Assembly: GCA_045125595.1 (NCBI GenBank)
Contig: JBGVNN010000024.1
Coordinates: 12,608 to 76,607 of the forward strand
Origin: Candidatus Egerieisoma sp.
GTDB lineage: Bacteria > Bacillota > Clostridia > UBA1212 > UBA1255
Direction: 5' to 3'
DNA: 64,000 bases
Shown here in pieces: positions 27,808 through 51,596 of the stretch. Within the stretch, counting starts at the first letter, position 1; each line of letters begins with the position of its first letter. A program made the translations under genes and the position numbers. A model generated the notes under the pieces. That model worked only from the letters and a program-made list of their open reading frames with translations, made no database searches and was not told the DNA's origin.

Positions 27808-28491
27808 ATGATAGTAGACATTATTTTAATTGCAATTATGGCTATAGCTGTTTTTGTCGGATGGAAACGCGGATTGGTAATGTCGGTTTTTCTTCTTGGT
27901 GCAACAATCATTGCTATATTTGTTGCGAGTGTATTATCTCCGGTTGTTGCGACCGGATTGGAAAAATTAGGTGTAGCCGACGCAATGGCGCCTAAATTTT
28001 CGTCGATTGTAGAAGAAAATTTAATGGAAGAGTACAATGAAAATGGAGCTGTGGATGTAAATTCTGCAATAGAAAAATTGCCGTTACCTTCATTTTTAAC
28101 AGAGAAGATTTCGTCAGGGGTCAACGATAAGGCAGAAGAATCCATTTCAAAAATCTCAGCAGATATAGGCGCGAAAGCCGCAACGTTGGCATGTGCAGTA
28201 ATAGCTTTTATAATAATTTTTGTTCTTGTCATCATTGTGATGCAGGTACTGAAGATTGCACTGAAAATTGCGGTGAAATTACCACTTGTCAAACAGACAG
28301 ATAAAATCGGTGGTATTTTGGTGGGATTTTTACAAGGAGCTTTATTTGTACTTGTGTTATTGCTCTTTGTGTCAACATTATCTTCGACAGAGTTCATGTC
28401 GGGTATTGTGAAAGAGATAGAAAATTCAACAATAACAGCCTTTTTGTATGAAAGTAATTTTATTGGAAAAATATTTTCGGCTTTAATGTAA
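27808..28491 (+). CDS. cvpA: CvpA-family membrane protein.
   Basis: N-terminus MIVDIILIAIMAIAVFVGWKRGLV. RBS AGGAGG. Confidence 0.7.
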   Translation: MIVDIILIAIMAIAVFVGWKRGLVMSVFLLGATIIAIFVASVLSPVVATGLEKLGVADAMAPKFSSIVEENLMEEYNENGAVDVNSAIEKLPLPSFLTEKISSGVNDKAEESISKISADIGAKAATLACAVIAFIIIFVLVIIVMQVLKIALKIAVKLPLVKQTDKIGGILVGFLQGALFVLVLLLFVSTLSSTEFMSGIVKEIENSTITAFLYESNFIGKIFSALM

Positions 28492-28566
28492 AAAGGGGTT
28501 GACAAAACAAGAGCTAATGTGTTACATTAGTCAATGCGCTTTAGGCGATGGAGGTGTTAAGTAACA

Positions 28567-28716
28567 TGAGAGTAAAAGTAACAATGGCTTGTACTGAGTG
28601 CAAACAACGTAATTACACAACAATGAAAAACAAAAAAAATAACCCTGACAGAATTGAAATGAGCAAATATTGTAAGTTCTGTAAGAAACACACAGCACAC
28701 AGAGAAACAAAGTAAT
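28567..28716 (+). CDS. rpmG: 50S ribosomal protein L33.
   Basis: [49 protein letters not shown], 49 aa. Not in the ORF track because it is under 60 aa. RBS GGAGGTG. Confidence 0.85.
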
Positions 28717-28772
28717 ATTTCTGTGGATGTAGTTTCACATTCGGGTGTTAATAAATTAAGGATGTGTTTAAA

Positions 28773-29009
28773 ATGGCTAAAGAGAAAAAAGAAAACAAAC
28801 CTAATATTTTCAAAAGAATAGGTAGTGCAATTGCCGGATTTTTTAAAGGTATTGTAGCTGAGATTAAAAAAGTTACATGGCCTACAAAGAAACAAGTTGC
28901 ACTTAACACGCTTTCTGTTTTGGCTTTTTGCTTGGTTATAGGAGCTATTATATGGCTCTCAGATTTCGGTCTGGATGCTTTGATGGGGTTAATCGCAAGA
29001 TTAAGCTGA
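28773..29009 (+). CDS. secE: Preprotein translocase subunit SecE.
   Basis: A short basic N-terminus plus a single TM helix (LSVLAFCLVIGAIIWL). Lies between rpmG and nusG. Confidence 0.8.
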   Translation: MAKEKKENKPNIFKRIGSAIAGFFKGIVAEIKKVTWPTKKQVALNTLSVLAFCLVIGAIIWLSDFGLDALMGLIARLS

Positions 29010-29078
29010 TAAGGATACGATAAATCGGTAATAAAAGCTCAAAATGATTCGTGCAAAATATTTGAAAGGAGGACAATC

Positions 29079-29612
29079 ATGTTTTTAGAGGATGTTTCGA
29101 GTGAGCCTTTGTGGTATGTAGTTCATACTTATTCAGGCTACGAAGACAAAGTTAAAAAAAGTCTTGAGACAGTTATAAAGAACAGAGGAATGCAAGATTA
29201 TTTCTTTGATATTATTATTCCTATGTTAGAAGAAGTGGAGATTAAAGACGGACGCGAAAAGTCTGCTCTTAAAAAGATATTTCCCGGATATGTCCTCGTT
29301 AAGATGATTCTTACCGATGACACTTGGTATGTTGTGCGCAATATACGTGGTGTTACAAGCTTCGTCGGTTTTGGTAATAAACCTCAAAGCTTATCAGATG
29401 AAGAGGTTTGCGCTTTGGGCGTGGATCAGACAAAGACTGTGGATTACGAGATTGGAGATACTGTGCGTATTATTTCAGGTCCTTTGGAGAATTTCACAGG
29501 TGTGGTTGAAAACATTAATGTTGAAAAATCACAAGTTAAGGTACTCGTTTCCATGTTTGGACGCGAGATTTCAGCTGAATTGGAATATTCTCAAATTCAG
29601 AGAATATTTTAA
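29079..29612 (+). CDS. nusG: Transcription termination/antitermination factor NusG.
   Basis: WYVVHTYSGYEDKVK NGN domain and a C-terminal KOW domain (GDTVRIISGPLENFTGVV). Confidence 0.9.
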   Translation: MFLEDVSSEPLWYVVHTYSGYEDKVKKSLETVIKNRGMQDYFFDIIIPMLEEVEIKDGREKSALKKIFPGYVLVKMILTDDTWYVVRNIRGVTSFVGFGNKPQSLSDEEVCALGVDQTKTVDYEIGDTVRIISGPLENFTGVVENINVEKSQVKVLVSMFGREISAELEYSQIQRIF

Positions 29613-32240: not shown

Positions 32241-32395
32241 AGTAAACCTCCGAAAGTTTTATATTAGAGAAATATCTCTTATTGATAATATTTGTTAAAA
32301 AAAGAATTTTATACAAAAATGTTGATTTTATGCTTGCATATTGAAGAAAAATAAGAGATAATATATAAGAAATCAAATTTATGGAGGTTTTTGTA

Positions 32396-32854
32396 ATGGC
32401 TTTTTGTGAGAAATGCGGCAAAGAGATTTCTAATGGTTCAGTTTGCACAGAATGCGCTTCAAAGGCAAATTCAAACACTGAGAAATCATTTTTTCAAACT
32501 ATTTTAGATACTAAGGATACTACAGCAGACTTTAGCAAAGAGGAAATTGAGAAAAATAAAGTAGTATGTGGTTTAGCATATATTCCGATTCTTTTCTGGC
32601 TTCCTTTGGTTGCCGGTACAAAGGGATCAAAATATTGTAAATTCCATTCAAATAATGGACTTTTACTCTTAATACTTGATGTTGTACTCGGTATAGTAAG
32701 CAGCTTGTTAGGTCTTATTCCTTTTGTTGGCGCTGTTTTGGGTTCTGTACTCGGTTTACTTACAGTAGGATATATAGTATTCGGTATGGTATTTACTTTC
32801 CAAGGTAAAGTTAAAGAGCTTCCTTTTATCGGAGGAATCAAGATTATTTCTTAA
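32396..32854 (+). CDS. Zinc-ribbon plus DUF4870-like small membrane protein.
   Basis: CEKCGKEI..CTEC zinc ribbon, then two to three TM helices. RBS TGGAGG. Confidence 0.6.
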   Translation: MAFCEKCGKEISNGSVCTECASKANSNTEKSFFQTILDTKDTTADFSKEEIEKNKVVCGLAYIPILFWLPLVAGTKGSKYCKFHSNNGLLLLILDVVLGIVSSLLGLIPFVGAVLGSVLGLLTVGYIVFGMVFTFQGKVKELPFIGGIKIIS

Positions 32855-33633
32855 TAATCAACTGAATTAGAATAGTTCAAACGGAGCTGATCTGCGATTA
32901 AAGCGATCAGCTCTTTTGCATTTAAAGAATAATTGGCGGCATCTACACTATATCCTAAAATGGTATTCAATATATAATCTTTAGTGCAAATTTCATTAAT
33001 GTAGTTAACACTCTTCAAAATAGCCCTTTCTACTTGTCGCGAATTTGAATTGTACTCTTTAGCGACTTTTTCATATAATCGACAAGAAACATCAGGTAGT
33101 TTAGTCTCTCTCTTTGCAATATGTATAATTGCGCTTTTCAAAAAATAATAACCTGAAAAGTGTACAGGTAACTTAAGTTTGTGAAGAAGTTCATCTACTT
33201 TTTGAGTATAAAATAAATCGATGTTCTTTTTATCTTGAGAGAAAAAGCCTCGACCACTTATGACGCGAAGCGTACTGCGAAGAATATCAGGATTATCAAG
33301 ATTCTCCATAAATAAGTCGGCTCCGTTTTTTATAGAATCGGATATAAGAGTTTCTCCTTCTTTAGAAGAAGCAGTAGCTATTACTTTCACGGAATGATTC
33401 TTTGCGTTACAAATTTCTTTTATTTTATTATTAACATTGTCATCTTTTCCCGATAAATCATAAATGAGGATATCAGGAGATAATAACGAACATAATTCCA
33501 CGATATTTGTAGTATTTCGAGAAGAAGCGACCACAGAAGCATTGTTTAACTGAGCGATGTTTCCGGCAACTTTTTTCAAATAATCATTATTTTCAATTAC
33601 AGTTATTATGCGTAAAGCATTTTCTTGAATCAA
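32851..33633 (-). CDS. Spo0A paralogue: an atypical, degenerate receiver domain plus a Spo0A_C-type DNA-binding domain.
   Basis: The C-terminus LPVHFSGYYFLKSAI..RQVERAI..ELIALIADQLRL parallels Spo0A_C (VPAHIKGYLYLREAI..SRVERAI..EFIAMVADKLRL). The N-terminal acidic pocket reads IENND, not DD. Confidence 0.6.
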   Translation of the reverse strand: MIQENALRIITVIENNDYLKKVAGNIAQLNNASVVASSRNTTNIVELCSLLSPDILIYDLSGKDDNVNNKIKEICNAKNHSVKVIATASSKEGETLISDSIKNGADLFMENLDNPDILRSTLRVISGRGFFSQDKKNIDLFYTQKVDELLHKLKLPVHFSGYYFLKSAIIHIAKRETKLPDVSCRLYEKVAKEYNSNSRQVERAILKSVNYINEICTKDYILNTILGYSVDAANYSLNAKELIALIADQLRLNYSNSVDY

Positions 33634-33868
33634 GAGAAACCTCCCTAATAGAAATCACTACCATATACTAACATAAAGTACGAAAAAAGTCAAACATTAC
33701 ATCGAAATTTACAGAATATGGTAAAAGAATAACGCACAAAAAATATTTCCCGGGAAATAATGTGGTTTTTTGACATAAGAGTATGTTATGTGTTAGAATG
33801 CGCCCACTCGGTAATACAAAGAAAAGTCGCAGCACGCCGATATTATTCACAAAAGAAAACATATACAA

Positions 33869-34696
33869 ATGAGAAAGGTGATTGCTGTGAGAAAAGATTC
33901 TTATTCAGTTTTAATTGTTGATGCAGACTGTGAGTTTGCTGATACATTAGGTTTGCGAGTTATAGAACGCAATAATTTGTCGTTATGTGGCAAAGTATAC
34001 AGCGGAGATGCTGTTTTGCCCGTAGTTAAAGAAAAAATGCCGGACATTATTATAATGGATTTAACTTTACCGGCGCTTGATGGTATAAGTGTTATACGAA
34101 TGCTTCAAAAAGATTTAAAGTACAAACCGGTTATTATCATTACGTCGGCATATTCAAATGATATGCAAAGATATTTGATAAACGATATTCCTAACGCATA
34201 TTTCGTCAGGAAACCAATTTCTTGTGAGCATCTTCTCGACAGAGCCGGTGATTTGGTAAAAGCAGCGACAGGCCTTTACGCAAAAGCAGCAGGAGAGAAT
34301 ATTGATGCTGAGAGAGCTTTTTATAGGATTTTAAAATACAATAACGAAGATTCTACTTTTAAAAGAGTTACAAATTTATTGCATGACTTGGGAGTTCCGG
34401 CACATCTGACCGGGTATGTATATCTAAGAGAAGCCGTTTGTATGGTAATAGATAATCCGATGTTGATTAACCACATGACAAAAACTGTTTATCCGAGTTT
34501 GGCAGACAGACATGGTAAAACAACTGCAAGTGTTGAAAAAGCAATAAGAACAGCAGTTGAAGTATCATGGAACAGAGGTAAAGTAGAGATATTAGAAGAA
34601 ATATTCGGCTTTACGGTAAATATGCAAAAAGGAAAGCCCACCAACACAGAGTATATTGCTATGCTGGCGGACCGTTATAATGTCTGGATGAAATAA
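33869..34696 (+). CDS. spo0A: Stage 0 sporulation protein A-like response regulator (receiver plus Spo0A_C).
   Basis: Receiver LIVDAD..IIIMDLTLPALDG. C-terminal GVPAHLTGYVYLREAV..ASVEKAIRTAVEVSWNRG..FGFTVNMQKGKPTNTEYIAMLADR. The true start may be GTG 33887. Confidence 0.8.
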   Translation: MRKVIAVRKDSYSVLIVDADCEFADTLGLRVIERNNLSLCGKVYSGDAVLPVVKEKMPDIIIMDLTLPALDGISVIRMLQKDLKYKPVIIITSAYSNDMQRYLINDIPNAYFVRKPISCEHLLDRAGDLVKAATGLYAKAAGENIDAERAFYRILKYNNEDSTFKRVTNLLHDLGVPAHLTGYVYLREAVCMVIDNPMLINHMTKTVYPSLADRHGKTTASVEKAIRTAVEVSWNRGKVEILEEIFGFTVNMQKGKPTNTEYIAMLADRYNVWMK

Positions 34697-47855: not shown

Positions 47856-49019
47856 TTGATTTATGAAGTAAAAGAGAATATAGTGTTAAAAACAAAGAAG
47901 GGAGGTGTTTTCATAGATGAGAAACATTTGATTGAAATAGTTAACAAAAAGCTTTCGCAACGCATGGATATGACCCGCGAATACAGCGATGCGGAGCTGA
48001 AAAATTTAATTGGCATATGTATTGAAAACATTATGGTTAAGATACCCGGAGTGAATATTAATGCAAAGAGTTTACTTACTGAGGTATTTAACAGCAGACG
48101 CCGTATGGGACTTATACAACCATTTATTGAAAATCCTGCGGTGAATGAAATAATGATAAACGGTACAGATAATATTTTTATAGAAGTAGATGGCGTGACG
48201 AAGGATTCAGGTTTGCGCTATGACAATAAAGAAGAACTTTTTCATAATATACAGGCTATGCTTTCGCAAAGTAACCGTTCGGTAAGTGAAAGTAATCCGA
48301 TCGTTGATGCAGTATTGCAGGGAGGTTCCAGGATAAATGTAGTTTTAAATCCGGTAGCAATCAACGGGCCTATAGTAACAATCAGAAAATTTACAAAGCA
48401 ACAATACACAATAGAAGACTTCATAAAAAATGATACACTGACAGAAGAAATGGCAGGTTATATTAAACATGCAGTTTTTCGAGGTAAAAGTATTATTATT
48501 TCAGGCAGTACATCATCGGGAAAGACTACTTTTATGAATATGATAGCAGGATTTATACCGGACGATAAAAGGATAATCACTATAGAAGATTCTGCTGAGT
48601 TAAACATAAAAAGTAAAAATGTAGTGCGTTTAGAAACGAGAAATGCCAATACGGAGGGAAATGGAGAAATAAAAATGAGAGCATTAATTAAGGCGGCTCT
48701 CAGAATGAGACCGGACAGATTATTGATAGGAGAAGTGAGAGATGAAAGTGCTCTCGAATTGTTGACAGCGATGTGTACCGGCCATAGTGGCTCAATGTCT
48801 ACTATACATGCAAATTCTGCCGAAGATACCCTTGTGAGACTTGAGACGATGGCTTTGTGGGAAGGACACGTACATTCGGAAGCGATAAAAAGAATGATTG
48901 TTTCCGGAGTGGATGTTGTTGTCTTTCTTGAAAGAAACGAAAAGGGGAGACGAGTTAAAGAAATTGCGGAGGTATGCAAAAATGAAAAAGAAAAAATATG
49001 TCTTAAAAAAATATTTTAA
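47856..49019 (+). CDS. CpaF/TadA-family secretion ATPase.
   Basis: Walker A SGSTSSGKTT, and GHSGSMSTIHANS (His box). The start codon is uncertain. Confidence 0.85.
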   Translation: MIYEVKENIVLKTKKGGVFIDEKHLIEIVNKKLSQRMDMTREYSDAELKNLIGICIENIMVKIPGVNINAKSLLTEVFNSRRRMGLIQPFIENPAVNEIMINGTDNIFIEVDGVTKDSGLRYDNKEELFHNIQAMLSQSNRSVSESNPIVDAVLQGGSRINVVLNPVAINGPIVTIRKFTKQQYTIEDFIKNDTLTEEMAGYIKHAVFRGKSIIISGSTSSGKTTFMNMIAGFIPDDKRIITIEDSAELNIKSKNVVRLETRNANTEGNGEIKMRALIKAALRMRPDRLLIGEVRDESALELLTAMCTGHSGSMSTIHANSAEDTLVRLETMALWEGHVHSEAIKRMIVSGVDVVVFLERNEKGRRVKEIAEVCKNEKEKICLKKIF

Positions 49020-49725
49020 CCTTAACAGTAAGTTGGTTTGCTTTATGTGTTTTTATATTGCATTAGCTGTATTTGTTTTTATGGTTGTTTTTGAAAAGTG
49101 GACAATAAGCATATCTCTTGCTTTGTGCGGATTGCCTCTTTTTGTAAAAAAAACTAAATTATGGTTAAAAAAGAAACGACAAGAAGCAACAGAAGCAGAA
49201 TTTTATGTGTTGTTGACTCAACTTTCAATGGCAATGTCATCAGGAATGTCGTTGGAAAATGCCATAAGAGAAGCTGTTGTTGCAGGTAAAAAAGAATACA
49301 AGATATTAAGAGCGGAGTTAGAAGGTATGTACCGCCTGCTCCAAAACAATTATTCTCCTGAGTATGTATTTGGCGTTTTAGCTAAAAAGACGGAGAATCA
49401 AGAAATTAAAACTTTTTCGGAAATTCTTTCTGTGGGCATGCCGGCCGGGATTAATATGGCGGGGTTAATGAGGTGGCTTACATCTGCTTACAGAATGAAA
49501 ATTGATACAGAAAGTGAAATTTCGAGGATTCTCAATGCGCCGAAATATAACAATCGTATTATATTAGCGATGCCTGTAGTATGTATTGTGCTGTTCAAGC
49601 AAATTGCACCTTCATATATGCAACCGCTGTATGCTGGAGCAGGAAGAATAATAATGGTATTTGTAGTTTTTGTTATTGCTTTGGCTTGGTGGCTGGGAGA
49701 AAAAATAAGCAAAATTGATTATTAA
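48982..49725 (+). CDS. TadB-like T2SS-F-domain membrane protein.
   Basis: RBS GCGGAGG precedes ATG 48982. TM helices flank a cytoplasmic domain (LLTQLSMAMSSGMSLENAIREA). Confidence 0.65.
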   Translation: MKKKKYVLKKYFNLNSKLVCFMCFYIALAVFVFMVVFEKWTISISLALCGLPLFVKKTKLWLKKKRQEATEAEFYVLLTQLSMAMSSGMSLENAIREAVVAGKKEYKILRAELEGMYRLLQNNYSPEYVFGVLAKKTENQEIKTFSEILSVGMPAGINMAGLMRWLTSAYRMKIDTESEISRILNAPKYNNRIILAMPVVCIVLFKQIAPSYMQPLYAGAGRIIMVFVVFVIALAWWLGEKISKIDY

Positions 49726-49744
49726 AAAGATTTAAAGGAGAAAA

Positions 49745-50368
49745 ATGAAAAAAACTTATATATTTTTATTGTGCGGAGCGTTCTTTTTTGTTGTTTCTTT
49801 GGTAATGCAAGAGAATATAGTTTTTTGCTTTATAATGGGATTTACAGCCACAACGCTTAGTTTTGCATTGAATAAAGTTATTGTACAAAAAAAGACAAAG
49901 CAGATAAATCAAAGCTATGAAATGGATTTACCTGATCTCATGGTACATATAGCTATGTTTGCTGAGGCAGGCATGGGAATACAAGATGCTGTAGAAAGAG
50001 CAGTACTTTCCGGAGAAAAAAGAAAGAAACTTTATGCAGACCTTTTTATGGTATTTGAAAACATAAGAAAAGGATACACAAAAGACTTCATAACTGGCTT
50101 GGAAGAATTGGCGGATTTAAGAAAATCACCTGTTTTAAGTAACTTTTGTATAACTGTAGTGCAAAATATGCGTAAAGGCAGCGGTGAATTAAGTGCGCTT
50201 TTTATGTCGCAAGCACAGCTTCAGCGTAATGAAAGGAGAAGACTTGCAGGAAAGATGGCTGATGAAGCAGCAACTTTGTTGATTATCCCATCTACACTTG
50301 TATTGATTGCTTTGATTGTTTTGTTGCTTGCGCCTGCTGTCTTGGAGATGTTTAAGGGTATGAAATAA
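49745..50368 (+). CDS. TadC-like T2SS-F-domain membrane protein.
   Basis: Similar architecture to TadB. RBS AAAGGAG. Confidence 0.6.
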   Translation: MKKTYIFLLCGAFFFVVSLVMQENIVFCFIMGFTATTLSFALNKVIVQKKTKQINQSYEMDLPDLMVHIAMFAEAGMGIQDAVERAVLSGEKRKKLYADLFMVFENIRKGYTKDFITGLEELADLRKSPVLSNFCITVVQNMRKGSGELSALFMSQAQLQRNERRRLAGKMADEAATLLIIPSTLVLIALIVLLLAPAVLEMFKGMK

Positions 50369-50379
50369 AGGGAGGTTTT

Positions 50380-50589
50380 ATGATAGGTATAAAAATGTAT
50401 ATCAAATTAAAATATTGTTTTGAAAAATTGTTTAAAGATGAATCGGGTATGGGTACCATAGAGGTAATTATTATTATTGCTGTGTTGGTTTCTTTGGCTC
50501 TTGTATTCAGGAATTTTATAATGGATATGGCAGGTATGGTTTTTGATAAGATTAAAGCAAAAACAGATGCAACGATTAATTCTTTATAG
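50380..50589 (+). CDS. Flp-family pilin.
   Basis: SGMGTIEVIIIIAVLVSLALVF resembles the Flp G/xxxEY-type class III signal plus hydrophobic core. RBS GGGAGG. Confidence 0.6.
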   Translation: MIGIKMYIKLKYCFEKLFKDESGMGTIEVIIIIAVLVSLALVFRNFIMDMAGMVFDKIKAKTDATINSL

Positions 50590-50612
50590 GCTTTTTGTAT
50601 GAGGGTTAAAAG

Positions 50613-51596
50613 ATGAGAATTAATAAAGAAAGAACAGGAGTGGGAGTTTCTTTTAAGACAAAATACTCACAGCAAGAATTAAAAGATAAAATGAATACAG
50701 TGTCTGAATACTTAACGGGAGTTTTTGTGCCGTCAGATGTGAGTTGGGAGGGGGTGAACTATTCTTTTTATATTACTCACAGGCAATCGTTAAGAGAATA
50801 TATAAATGAAAACGGGATTACAAATAACGATTTTTTTCTTTTTATAAACAGCCTGATATCTTTGTTGGAAAAAGCAGAGGAATATAATATTGATCTTCAT
50901 GAATTCGTATTTGATTATGAATGTGTTTTTGTTGGTGATTCTCTGGCTGAAACGGAGTTTATATACGCACCTGATGCTGAAGCGTATAAAGATGATTATG
51001 TTGTGCATAATAAGTGTAGTGATATGGCATCTATTGTTTCTCTCCACATCGATATGCATGGGTCGAATTTTAATAAACCTGAAGAAAATATTTCCGAAAT
51101 ATTGCGCATATTATATGAGTGGGAAAATAAACCTTTGTCAAAGAAAGTGCCTTTTCCGAAAGAAGAATTGATGTCTTTGATAGCAAAGTCCAAAATGTTT
51201 TTTGATGTAGGAGAATACTTAAAAGAAAAACTTCAAAGAGCATATGATGTTTTTTTGAAAGTTTTTAATTCAAAAGGAGAACTTTACATGAAATTAAACG
51301 GGGTAATGATGTTAAAGGGAGTAAAATATATATGCGAAAGTGAAAAAGATAGTGAAATAAACATAGGTCGAGATGATGAATGGGCAGATTTAGCTGTTGG
51401 CATGATGTTTATCAGTCGTAAACACGCGACAATCTACAGAGAAAACGGGGTGTGGTATATAAAAGATTTAAATTCAAAAAACGGTACATTTGTAAATGGC
51501 GCAAGGATTGTCGCCGACAGACCTTTTTCGCTGAATGACGGATATGAAATTTCGCTTGGCTTGTCTGAGTCAAAATTGATTTTCTGCTTGCCCTAA
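50613..51596 (+). CDS. FHA-domain protein (unknown N-terminal domain, C-terminal FHA).
   Basis: C-terminus INIGRDDEWADLAVGMMFISRKHATIYRENGVWYIKDLNSKNGTFVNG. Immediately downstream of the pilin gene. Confidence 0.7.
   Translation: MRINKERTGVGVSFKTKYSQQELKDKMNTVSEYLTGVFVPSDVSWEGVNYSFYITHRQSLREYINENGITNNDFFLFINSLISLLEKAEEYNIDLHEFVFDYECVFVGDSLAETEFIYAPDAEAYKDDYVVHNKCSDMASIVSLHIDMHGSNFNKPEENISEILRILYEWENKPLSKKVPFPKEELMSLIAKSKMFFDVGEYLKEKLQRAYDVFLKVFNSKGELYMKLNGVMMLKGVKYICESEKDSEINIGRDDEWADLAVGMMFISRKHATIYRENGVWYIKDLNSKNGTFVNGARIVADRPFSLNDGYEISLGLSESKLIFCLP

Follow-up and report, generated by a model that had tools for sequence, protein, structure and literature searches.

The window, by which we mean the whole 64-kb stretch of DNA analyzed here, carries two Spo0A-family genes back to back, and this pair is a conserved two-gene module of uncultured gut Clostridia related to Candidatus Egerieisoma (GTDB order UBA1212). 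Spo0A governs the initiation of sporulation as its master regulator. The strongest candidate for it is the plus-strand gene, which encodes the divergent Spo0A-family response regulator of this lineage. The minus-strand gene, here called the paralogue, encodes an old, separately evolving member of the same family, an atypical response regulator. We favor the explanation, at a probability of roughly 0.6, that it acts as a phosphorylation-independent Spo0A_C protein beside the lineage's Spo0A.

Results

The ORF listing of the window contains two divergent genes (Table 1), each of which encodes a receiver-like N-terminal domain joined to a Spo0A_C DNA-binding domain. The initial annotation had described them as a divergent pair of Spo0A_C regulators, one with a degenerate receiver, and had asked whether the pair is conserved in relatives. 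The description is borne out by the Pfam and NCBIfam profiles and by the predicted fold, and the divergent arrangement is kept in all 13 distinct related loci with enough flanking sequence. These loci come from gut metagenome-assembled genomes (MAGs) of a UBA1212-like GTDB order, sampled from buffalo, deer, chicken, rabbit, and human. The paralogue is chromosomal and sits between rplL and asnS, with a two-component system, recJ, and relA as further neighbors. No phage-like features were recognized among the window ORFs scanned, and a phage-borne truncated Spo0A was rejected in view of these neighbors and of the N-terminal domain that is present. Likewise, no sporulation genes were recognized among the ORFs scanned in the 64-kb window, where the one hit was a weak match of an M23 peptidase to SpoIIQ (62 bits; cutoff, 250). 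The usual position of sigH is upstream of rpmG-secE-nusG; in the window it is absent from there.

TABLE 1 Features of the divergent Spo0A-family locus, in window coordinates
Feature	Position	Strand	Details
Paralogue CDS, atypical Spo0A-family regulator	32851..33633	-	260 aa, TTG start; ORF, Pfam/NCBIfam, 22-member family alignment
Spo0A_C DNA-binding domain of paralogue	32884..33198	-	Residues 146-250; PF08769; recognition helix SRQVERAILK
Pseudo-receiver domain of paralogue	33259..33615	-	Residues 7-125; AF2 model, Foldseek, residue mapping
Shine-Dalgarno sequence (SD) of paralogue	33640-33645	-	GGGAGG, ahead of TTG start
Sigma-A-type promoter of paralogue	33665..33693	-	TTGACT-17-TAGTAT with TG; 9/12 plus TG
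Invariant block	33681..33697	.	CGAAAAAAGTCAAACAT; overlaps paralogue -35 and spacer
Perfect palindrome, candidate operator	33744..33759	.	TATTTCCCGGGAAATA; 10 nt upstream of Spo0A-like -35, centered about -54.5
Sigma-A-type promoter of Spo0A-like gene	33770..33799	+	TTGACA-18-TAGAAT, TG extension; predicted TSS near 33806
Leader element	33828..33838	+	CGCAGCACGCC; complementary to SD plus start codon (GGTGATTGCTGTG, 33877-33889)
Spo0A-like response regulator CDS	33887..34696	+	Probable GTG start, 269 aa; longest ORF from ATG 33869, 275 aa
Receiver domain of Spo0A-like protein	33908..34243	+	Pocket V-D-A-D; phospho-Asp (IIMD), Ser/Thr (ITS), K-P (RKP) kept
Spo0A_C domain of Spo0A-like protein	34367..34675	+	KPTNTEYIAM signature; recognition helix ASVEKAIRTAVE; tail ADRYNVWMK

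Translation of the plus-strand gene most likely begins at the GTG codon, which is invariant across loci together with the SD AAAGGTGA; the upstream ATG reads AAG in six loci, and the NCBI product call is also 269 aa. The protein passes the Spo0A equivalog model TIGR02875 by a narrow margin (214.7 against a cutoff of 200; profile positions 4 to 257 of 262). It scores 125 bits for Spo0A_C (PF08769) and 52 bits for Response_reg, and its Spo0A_C domain aligns to 1FC3 and 1LQ1 with 119 bits. Both window proteins resemble Spo0A of B. subtilis and C. difficile (TIGR02875; 1QMP, 1FC3, 1LQ1) in that a receiver fold is joined to Spo0A_C and in that the DNA-binding fold has six helices. In the plus-strand protein, the likeness extends to the KPTNxE(F/Y)IAM signature.

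The same gene had been called a canonical Spo0A. While the equivalog score, the PTNTEYIAM signature, and the phospho-Asp speak for Spo0A, the protein departs from the canonical form in its D-A-D pocket, its recognition helix, and its ADRYNVWMK tail, and neither spoIVB nor recN adjoins the gene. Aligned to the receivers of B. subtilis and G. stearothermophilus Spo0A, it has V-D-A-D where B. subtilis has A-D-D-N. D18-A19-D20 corresponds to B. subtilis D10-D11-N12, such that the second residue of the acidic pair (DD2) has become Ala and the invariant Asp lies one position on. VD[AGS]D is conserved in the clade alignment of plus-strand receivers, and judging from its sequence the protein is probably still phosphorylatable. 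Its recognition helix reads ASVEKAIRT against the canonical SRVERAIRH, with Lys at the equivalent of R214 and Thr at that of H218. We take E213, R214, R217, and H218 to be the B. subtilis Spo0A numbers of these positions, in agreement with the PDB alignments. In the literature on 1LQ1, the contacted bases are G2, C4, and G5.

The paralogue had been credited with an equally clear Spo0A_C domain, and this holds. PF08769 matches over its full profile (positions 1 to 104 of 104) with 59.1 bits against a cutoff of 25, the sequence comparison with 1FC3 and 1LQ1 gives an E value of about 1e-12, and the peptide motifs that had been quoted are present. Since the fold search with the full-length model was dominated by receiver matches, the C-terminal domain was modeled separately (pLDDT, 90.6; pTM, 0.84). 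The sole significant PDB matches of this model were 1FC3 and 1LQ1 (TM, 0.72 to 0.82; probability, 1.00), which settles the concern that the domain might not model as Spo0A_C. The VERAI core of the recognition helix (E202, R203, A204, I205) is invariant or nearly so in the 22-member family alignment, and the ADxLRL tail is retained, both as in Spo0A. However, the protein scores only 77 against the TIGR02875 cutoff of 200, SLNAKELIAL stands in place of the KPTN signature, and the R217 equivalent is lost.

In its C-terminal domain, the paralogue is only 22 to 32% identical to any other Spo0A and 25% identical to its neighbor, to which it is thus no closer than to the rest, and we therefore rejected a recent tandem duplication. 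The dN/dS ratio of 0.07 to 0.10, with synonymous sites saturated, indicates purifying selection. At the protein level, the paralogue evolves some nine times faster than the neighboring spo0A, as measured by dN between the window and locus L002 (0.167 versus 0.019). More than 20 sequence clusters have an intact ORF for it. Small genes encoding only Spo0A_C near distant Spo0A-like genes (L017 and L019) were rejected as orthologues of the paralogue at 9 to 20% identity.

The N-terminal domain of the paralogue scores 17.8 bits for Response_reg, below the cutoff of 30.2. In the AF2 model of the full-length protein (pLDDT, 85.6), it nevertheless adopts the (beta/alpha)5 topology, and Foldseek matches it to CheY and Spo0A receivers (TMt, 0.80 to 0.87), as expected for a CheY-like receiver fold. 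The canonical Lys of a receiver binds a phosphoryl oxygen. In the paralogue, this position is occupied by N111, or by E110 in some alignments, with Lys or Arg at neither in 21 of the 22 family members. The acidic pair is E13-N14, meaning that DD2 is lost as well. Conversely, at least 90% of the family has the phospho-accepting D59 (P0021 and P0022 have Glu there), T87 is invariant, and the small residue after it (A88) and the aromatic residue three positions before the Lys position (F108) are kept. In one family member, P0020, none of the D-D, D, T, K residues is missing. The loops following beta3, beta4, and beta5, which form the active site, are the best-conserved parts of the domain. DD2 contacts the catalytic metal directly, and a pseudo-receiver is defined as a receiver in which any one of DD, D, T, or K is missing (PMC12632262). 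With Asn at both DD2 and K, the domain qualifies as a pseudo-receiver by this published definition, as read from its sequence; because the phospho-Asp is retained, it is not an aspartate-less receiver. Proper alignment thus does not restore an intact receiver, although the degeneration is milder than first described: of the acidic pair, it is the second residue that has gone while the first is Glu and D59 stands, and of the Thr/Lys context, the Lys has gone but the Thr has stayed.

Intact orthologues without any receiver occur in the same synteny, namely L014 (120 aa), in which the receiver-coding DNA is absent, and P0026 and P0027 (150 to 155 aa). Because these have deleted the receiver entirely, phosphorylation is probably not the switch of the paralogue, and the earlier suggestion of phosphorylation independence gains comparative support. 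The series from the full set in P0020 to the receiver-less orthologues may represent progressive loss.

The shared intergenic region was said to hold a sigma-A-like promoter. This is indeed the best promoter match of the region (11/12 plus TG; read here with an 18-nt spacer), it serves the Spo0A-like gene, and its -35 element and TGnTAnAAT are invariant in 11 orthologous loci. L017 and L019, two distant loci, show the same architecture. On the other side, the loci show no variation in the -35 element of the paralogue, in the spacer next to it, or in its SD. The palindrome TATTTCCCGGGAAATA occurs once in the window and is invariant in 10 of the 11 orthologous loci. At an equal distance from the -35 element, it also precedes Spo0A-like genes that are 38 to 40% identical (P0063 and P0066) and lie in another genomic context (L017 to L020). 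It is therefore linked to the Spo0A-like gene, and the link holds also in a lineage that has no paralogue. Matches in the window with up to two mismatches lie mostly inside genes. A metagenome scan for the palindrome plus -35 element returned 11 loci, four of which are Spo0A-like promoters. The others lie ahead of unrelated genes or of no ORF, in roughly the number expected by chance (by a rough estimate, 2), and therefore no regulon can be defined.

The paralogue promoter carries an invariant CGAAAAAAGTCAAAC block. The 14-mer CGAAAAAAGTCAAA is found once in every locus with a full-length paralogue and in no other locus, a strict co-occurrence. A second CGAAA (33703-33707), part of the CATCGAA element noted previously, lies 22 bp from the block CGAAAAAAGTCAAACAT, and this phasing recurs in the window, L010, and L013. 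The CGAAA block might be bound by any regulator or be no more than part of the promoter context. In the leader of the Spo0A-like gene, RNAalifold predicts 11 pairs, all invariant and without covariation, and the single-sequence fold has an energy of -16.5 kcal/mol (z = -2.1); both sides of the pairing are altered in L014. No Rfam family matched in the leader or the shared region. The exact 0A box (TGTCGAA) is absent from the intergenic region, and matches with up to two mismatches number 6 against 6.4 expected. The elements CATCGAA and GTCGCA, previously thought to resemble 0A boxes, each differ from TGTCGAA at two positions and show no positional conservation as 0A boxes, and we take them to be at chance level.

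Discussion

With its phosphorylation pocket incomplete, the paralogue probably works without phosphorylation. Because the metal-binding Asp and the Lys are lost, its receiver would be incapable of normal phosphotransfer. It would bind DNA through its Spo0A_C helix-turn-helix domain without the need to be phosphorylated, and its activity would depend mainly on how much of it is produced under its own sigma-A-type promoter. Instead of acting as a phospho-switch, the pseudo-receiver would then have a conformational role or serve protein interactions. Since its recognition helix is unlike that of its neighbor, the paralogue probably reads related but non-identical sites. One candidate is the CGAAA block over its own -35 element and spacer, binding to which would result in negative autoregulation. 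Functional coupling to the neighboring Spo0A is suggested by conserved adjacency, the one observation that points to it, and the roles of anti-activator or alternative master regulator, proposed in the initial annotation, are speculative.

Possibly, the pseudo-receiver forms a mixed dimer with the Spo0A-like protein through the receiver of the latter, and this dimer recognizes composite sites or alters Spo0A output, similar to WhiI-BldM in Streptomyces development. The strictly conserved adjacency and the shared control region would fit such a heterodimer, as would the beta5-alpha5 region, a usual dimer surface of receivers, which is the best-conserved part of the N-terminal domain (0.83 and 0.75). 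There is also precedent for a heterodimer of an atypical and a typical response regulator that steers development (PMC4125116). However, the persistence of receiver-less orthologues in the same synteny implies that receiver-receiver pairing is not the essential function, and we consider this explanation unlikely.

Alternatively, the paralogue might act as a competitor or anti-activator that occupies the 0A boxes of Spo0A without activating transcription. It has the Spo0A_C fold and a conserved E-R pair in its recognition helix, and the isolated DNA-binding domain of Spo0A is known to bind legitimate targets in the unphosphorylated state (PMC3485338). In contrast, the recognition helices of the two window proteins differ at several positions (ERAILK versus EKAIRT, within RQVERAILK versus ASVEKAIRT), the shared region offers no consensus 0A box and near-matches only at chance level, and each gene has a private, different cis-element. 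Because the helices differ and the invariant cis-elements are distinct, we do not favor competition for shared 0A boxes, which we regard as distinctly improbable.

A kinase-controlled paralogue that still accepts a phosphoryl group in an unconventional pocket is improbable to a similar degree. The retention of D59, T87, A88, and F108, combined with the high conservation of the active-site loops, leaves room for unconventional phosphorylation or a ligand-binding role, and P0020 has the complete residue set. Yet, the metal-binding DD2 (PMC12632262) and the phosphoryl-binding Lys are both absent in the clade of the window, the Response_reg score falls below its cutoff, and some orthologues have no receiver to phosphorylate.

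More tentative still, and in our estimate a long shot, is the idea that ancestral Spo0A functions have been split over two obligately linked proteins. One would be a phosphorylatable Spo0A that autoregulates via the palindrome TATTTCCCGGGAAATA instead of 0A boxes, and the other a phosphorylation-independent paralogue that preserves the ancestral E-R pair and ADxLRL tail. Together, perhaps in a heterodimer or by way of operators that interlock within the shared region of about 250 bp, they would form a bistable developmental or lifestyle switch. Finally, that the paralogue is a decaying, functionless relic of a duplicated spo0A, as its roughly ninefold faster protein evolution and the loss of receiver residues, or in some lineages whole receivers, might suggest, is largely refuted by the dN/dS of about 0.1 at saturated synonymous sites, the intact ORFs, the invariant promoter and SD, and the confident models of the full-length protein and its C-terminal domain.

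A phosphorylation-independent paralogue, the reading we prefer, resembles other atypical response regulators such as WhiI and BldM (PMC4125116) and CmrT of C. difficile (PMC12548384). It has a receiver fold that falls short of some of the DD/D/T/K residues, a DNA-binding output, and no partner kinase encoded alongside, and like the WhiI/BldM type it may act with a related regulator. It differs in that its output domain is Spo0A_C, not of the NarL/LuxR or OmpR type, and in that it keeps the phospho-Asp. The term "spo0a" is absent from the main text of the review of atypical regulators (PMC12632262). More than one Spo0A-family gene per genome is a feature shared with other gut Clostridia: two copies were reported in 10 of 118 Spo0A-positive Clostridiales genomes and three in Anaerostipes hadrus (Galperin et al., 10.1101/2022.02.25.481979), and Faecalibacterium duncaniae expresses three homologues (PMC13020158). 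These reports, however, describe no receiver degeneration, conserved divergent arrangement, or cis-elements. Truncated spo0A homologues have also been found in gut viromes (PMC10294663). Stand-alone proteins are annotated by NCBI as [quoted passage not shown]. In these, the effector is freed from the receiver, the exact architecture of L014, P0026, and P0027, whereas the window paralogue keeps a conserved pseudo-receiver and is chromosomal.

In conclusion, what is novel here is a divergent Spo0A-type gene back to back with a pseudo-receiver paralogue, a variant within known regulator types that represents no new kind of system and overturns no current concept. Endospore formation has Spo0A as its textbook master regulator, and the protein is widespread in gut Clostridia that are not known to sporulate. 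To our knowledge, the additional Spo0A copies tallied in genomes have so far gone without an explanation. The locus described here presents a Spo0A-family protein that remains under selection although its phosphorylation pocket is no longer canonical and sister lineages have lost the receiver altogether, and that is physically tied to the main Spo0A gene of its lineage. Each of the two genes also has a short, invariant cis-element of its own, ready for use in binding assays. Hence, the locus provides a tractable entry to the function of Spo0A paralogues and to the divergence of Spo0A DNA specificity beyond the Bacillus and Clostridium models.

Two divergent Spo0A_C genes

The divergent pair of regulators sharing the Spo0A C-terminal domain (Spo0A_C), proposed in the initial annotation, is borne out: both ORFs occupy the expected span, and Pfam detects Spo0A_C in the Spo0A-like protein (125 bits) and in its minus-strand paralogue (59 bits; gathering score, 25). 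Likewise, the solved Spo0A C-domains 1FC3/1LQ1 match both proteins (119 and 50 bits, respectively). When the paralogue C-domain was modelled separately (pLDDT, 90.6; pTM, 0.84), the only significant PDB matches were Spo0A_C structures (TM, 0.72 to 0.82; next match, E = 0.44); this domain is therefore Spo0A_C, the structural challenge to that assignment having left it standing. The receiver domain exceeds its Pfam threshold (30.2) only in the Spo0A-like protein (52 bits versus 17.8 for the paralogue).

The description of the Spo0A-like protein as a canonical Spo0A holds in part. It passes the cutoff of 200 for TIGR02875, the NCBIfam Spo0A equivalog (214.7 versus 77 for the paralogue), but its pocket, recognition helix, tail and homologue identities are atypical. 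The pocket reads D18-A19-D20 against D10-D11-N12 in Bacillus subtilis Spo0A, with the pattern VD[AGS]D fixed across the clade; the recognition helix ASVEKAIRTAVE has Lys at the equivalent of R214 and Thr at that of H218; and the C-terminal tail is ADRYNVWMK instead of the ADKLRLEHK of model Spo0A. The B. subtilis residue numbering agrees with the PDB alignments. Homologue identities are at least 68%, then fall to 48% and to 38 to 43%. We regard this protein as the best Spo0A candidate here, within a divergent subfamily. Its gene most likely starts at 33887, since ATG 33869 is not conserved (AAG in six loci), the SD sequence AAAGGTGA and GTG 33887 are invariant, and the NCBI product on a 189-kb contig is 269 aa long, matching this start.

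Coordinates of the features discussed (window positions unless a locus is named)
Feature	Position	Strand	Remarks
Paralogue ORF	32851-33633	-	260 aa, TTG start
Spo0A-like longest ORF	33869-34696	+	275 aa
Paralogue promoter TTGACT-17-TAGTAT	33693-33665	-	Embedded in invariant block CGAAAAAAGTCAAACAT
Perfect palindrome TATTTCCCGGGAAATA	33744-33759		10 nt upstream of Spo0A-like -35; unique in window
Spo0A-like promoter TTGACA-18-TAGAAT, TG extension	33770-33799	+	Best promoter match of the region
Leader element CGCAGCACGCC	33828-33838	+	Complementary to SD and GTG start (33877-33889)
Zinc-ribbon membrane protein gene	32381-32854	+	157 aa; convergent with paralogue, 4-bp overlap
CvpA-like gene, then rpmG, secE, nusG	27808-29612		rpmG 28548-28715; secE 28764-29009; nusG 29079-29612
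T2SSE ATPase, T2SSF-like membrane protein, FHA/DUF6382 protein	47856-51596		Clustered, adjoining mreB
Palindrome elsewhere	L017 7882-7899; L019 7873-7890		10 nt before TTGACA-18-TGnTAnnnT promoter
Spo0A-like genes, second gut lineage	L017/L018 8001-8786; L019/L020 8001-8774
Small Spo0A_C-only gene, second gut lineage	L017/L018 11253-11660; L019/L020 11310-11831		135-173 aa, VEKSIRVAI helix; 2.5 kb downstream
Swapped palindrome halves GGGAAATTATTTCCC; CGAAAAAA three times	L013 6740-6800 (window orientation)		CGAAAAAA copies at exact 22-bp intervals
Palindrome plus promoter before other genes	L028 405-434; L029 169-198; L024 8206-8235

A degenerate receiver in the paralogue

In the full-length paralogue model (pLDDT, 85.6; 22-sequence family alignment), six helices come after a (beta/alpha)5 domain; this N-domain aligns structurally with the receivers of CheY and Spo0A (TMt, 0.80 to 0.87). 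In the alignments, the active-site positions are E13 (DD1), N14 (DD2, the metal-binding Asp), D59 (the phospho-acceptor, retained in at least 90% of the family), T87 (invariant, with the small A88 at T+1) and N111 (K), a register that places the aromatic F108 at K-3; alternative alignments put E110 at the K position. The degeneracy noted at first thus concerns the acidic pair and the Lys but not the Thr, and proper alignment recovers D59 and T87 as intact but neither DD2 nor K. As any one of DD, D, T, or K missing defines a pseudo-receiver (PMC12632262), the N-domain is by sequence a pseudo-receiver and not an aspartate-less receiver.

DD2 and K are lost in the window's clade of the family. 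Four other members (P0013, P0015, P0018, and P0019) retain DD2 and score as Response_reg, and P0020 has D-D, D, T, and Lys all present. In locus L014, with synteny unchanged, an intact 120-aa orthologue consists of Spo0A_C only; the gap between it and its Spo0A-like neighbour is just 279 bp, promoters included, which means that the DNA for the receiver has been lost there. P0026 and P0027 (150 to 155 aa) resemble this orthologue. Where the N-domain is retained, its conservation is 0.66 versus 0.69 for the C-domain, with peaks in the beta3, beta4, and beta5 loops and in alpha5.

As we read these sequences, the essential function of the paralogue would reside in its DNA-binding domain, phosphotransfer is probably not its switch, and the retained pseudo-receiver may still be active somehow, via conformational control or partner binding. 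We favor, with a probability of roughly 60%, a phosphorylation-independent DNA-binding regulator of the Spo0A family. A heterodimer of the paralogue and the Spo0A-like protein, of the BldM-WhiI type (PMC4125116), would be an attractive analogy, but it is weakened by the receiver-less orthologues and we consider it unlikely. An unconventional phosphorylation of the paralogue seems slightly less probable still.

The shared control region

Several blocks of this region are invariant despite saturated synonymous divergence among the genomes, namely the Spo0A-like promoter, the palindrome, the block CGAAAAAAGTCAAACAT around the paralogue promoter, and the leader element. The sigma-A-like promoter predicted here was confirmed, with the spacing and -10 element listed in the table. 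The palindrome ahead of it recurs, at the same spacing to TTGACA-18-TGnTATCCT, upstream of Spo0A-like genes encoding proteins of 38 to 40% identity (P0063 and P0066), which lie in the different context tig-clpP-clpX-bacA-tsaD; no paralogue-family member was found beside them. As a candidate operator, it would be specific to the Spo0A subfamily with the VEKAIRT helix and ADRY tail; because it accompanies the Spo0A-like gene from one genomic context to another, the simplest reading is that it may be an autoregulatory operator of that gene. The most divergent full-length locus, L013, has the palindrome halves swapped (GGGAAATTATTTCCC). The same arrangement of palindrome and promoter is also present ahead of a small protein (LEKQTQSEV...NIIRWNNGRKKLDIRVW...), which by eye we take to be PC4/YdbC-like, in a high-GC gut bacterium (L028/L029; human gut, 515-kb contig), and a gene judged by eye to be amidohydrolase-like in a low-GC gut bacterium (L024); such matches may be fortuitous or may mark sites for a regulator of wider distribution.

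The 14-mer block CGAAAAAAGTCAAACAT occurs once in each locus with a full-length paralogue and in no other locus; some loci have a second CGAAA 22 bp off, and in L013 there are three. Judging by how the palindrome and this block are distributed, each gene of the pair has its own predicted cis-element. The 0A-box-like elements claimed for the region did not hold up: exact TGTCGAA is absent from it (whole window, 4 observed versus 8 expected), and matches with up to two mismatches number 6 against 6.4 expected. The suggestion that the paralogue competes with the Spo0A-like protein for 0A boxes is doubtful, as the recognition helices of the two proteins and the private cis-elements of their genes differ.

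The leader element may exert translational control on the Spo0A-like gene. It can form 11 invariant pairs with the SD and start, without covariation (single-sequence fold, -16.5 kcal/mol; z = -2.1); in L014, both partners are altered.

Conservation of the pair

The paralogue belongs to a small family, with 41 word-indexed matches; only 16 representatives among 1.84 billion reach an E value of 1e-30 or lower, some of them unrelated multi-domain proteins. The loci come from MAGs of uncultured Clostridia in the gut of buffalo, deer, chicken, rabbit, and human, among them Candidatus Egerieisoma (GTDB order UBA1212, family UBA1255). Pairing in relatives, suggested for checking by the initial annotation, is upheld: the order rplL, zinc-ribbon membrane protein, paralogue, divergent Spo0A-like gene, asnS is kept in all 13 distinct loci with sufficient flank (L002-L008, L010-L014, and L022, leaving out L026 and L027, near-identical to L011 and L005, respectively). 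The conserved zinc-ribbon protein, syntenic in all related loci, has an N-terminal zinc ribbon (CEKCG...CTEC) and membrane domain and no match in a Pfam scan.

Elsewhere in the window, sigH is absent from the position ahead of rpmG-secE-nusG, its usual place in Bacillus and Clostridium, which hints weakly at a reduced or rearranged sporulation-initiation apparatus. The T2SSE, T2SSF-like, and FHA/DUF6382 genes resemble a pilus or secretion cluster of the Tad/Flp type.

Compared with the window proteins, the Spo0A-like proteins of these loci are 69 to 97% identical and the AsnS proteins 85 to 98%, but the paralogues only 39 to 72%. With a dN/dS of 0.07 to 0.10 (Nei-Gojobori; synonymous sites saturated) and a dN between the window and L002 of 0.167, versus 0.019 (Spo0A-like gene) and 0.007 (asnS), the paralogue is, on these estimates, constrained yet fast-evolving. 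This low dN/dS and the invariant expression signals effectively exclude a decaying relic. A recent duplication is ruled out by the 25% C-domain identity to its neighbour (22 to 32% to other Spo0A proteins); by sequence, the paralogue is an old lineage.

Relation to other Spo0A_C proteins

Extra Spo0A copies are known from Clostridiales (two in 10 of 118 genomes, three in one; 10.1101/2022.02.25.481979) and Faecalibacterium, which expresses three homologues (PMC13020158), and gut viromes carry receiver-less spo0A homologues (PMC10294663). Pseudo-receivers are common (reviewed in PMC12632262), and the name "Spo0A C-terminal domain-containing protein" is already in use at NCBI. We found no description in the literature of a pseudo-receiver fused to Spo0A_C, of obligate divergent pairing of such a paralogue with the lineage's Spo0A gene, of receiver loss inside one orthologous family, or of either cis-element. 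In a second gut lineage, the receiver of the Spo0A-like protein lacks even the phospho-Asp (Asn in P0061 and P0065-P0067); its small Spo0A_C-only gene was rejected as a paralogue-family member (9 to 20% identity). Tandem Spo0A_C proteins with three to five domains and no receiver (P0197, 454 aa, four domains, 393 bits; P0198; P0200; P0204; P0219, 849 aa, five domains) look like a covalent mimic of a tandem-bound Spo0A oligomer.

As a phosphorylation-independent regulator, the paralogue would have its level set by its own promoter and would share a circuit with the neighbouring Spo0A-like protein, the target sites of the two being related, not identical.
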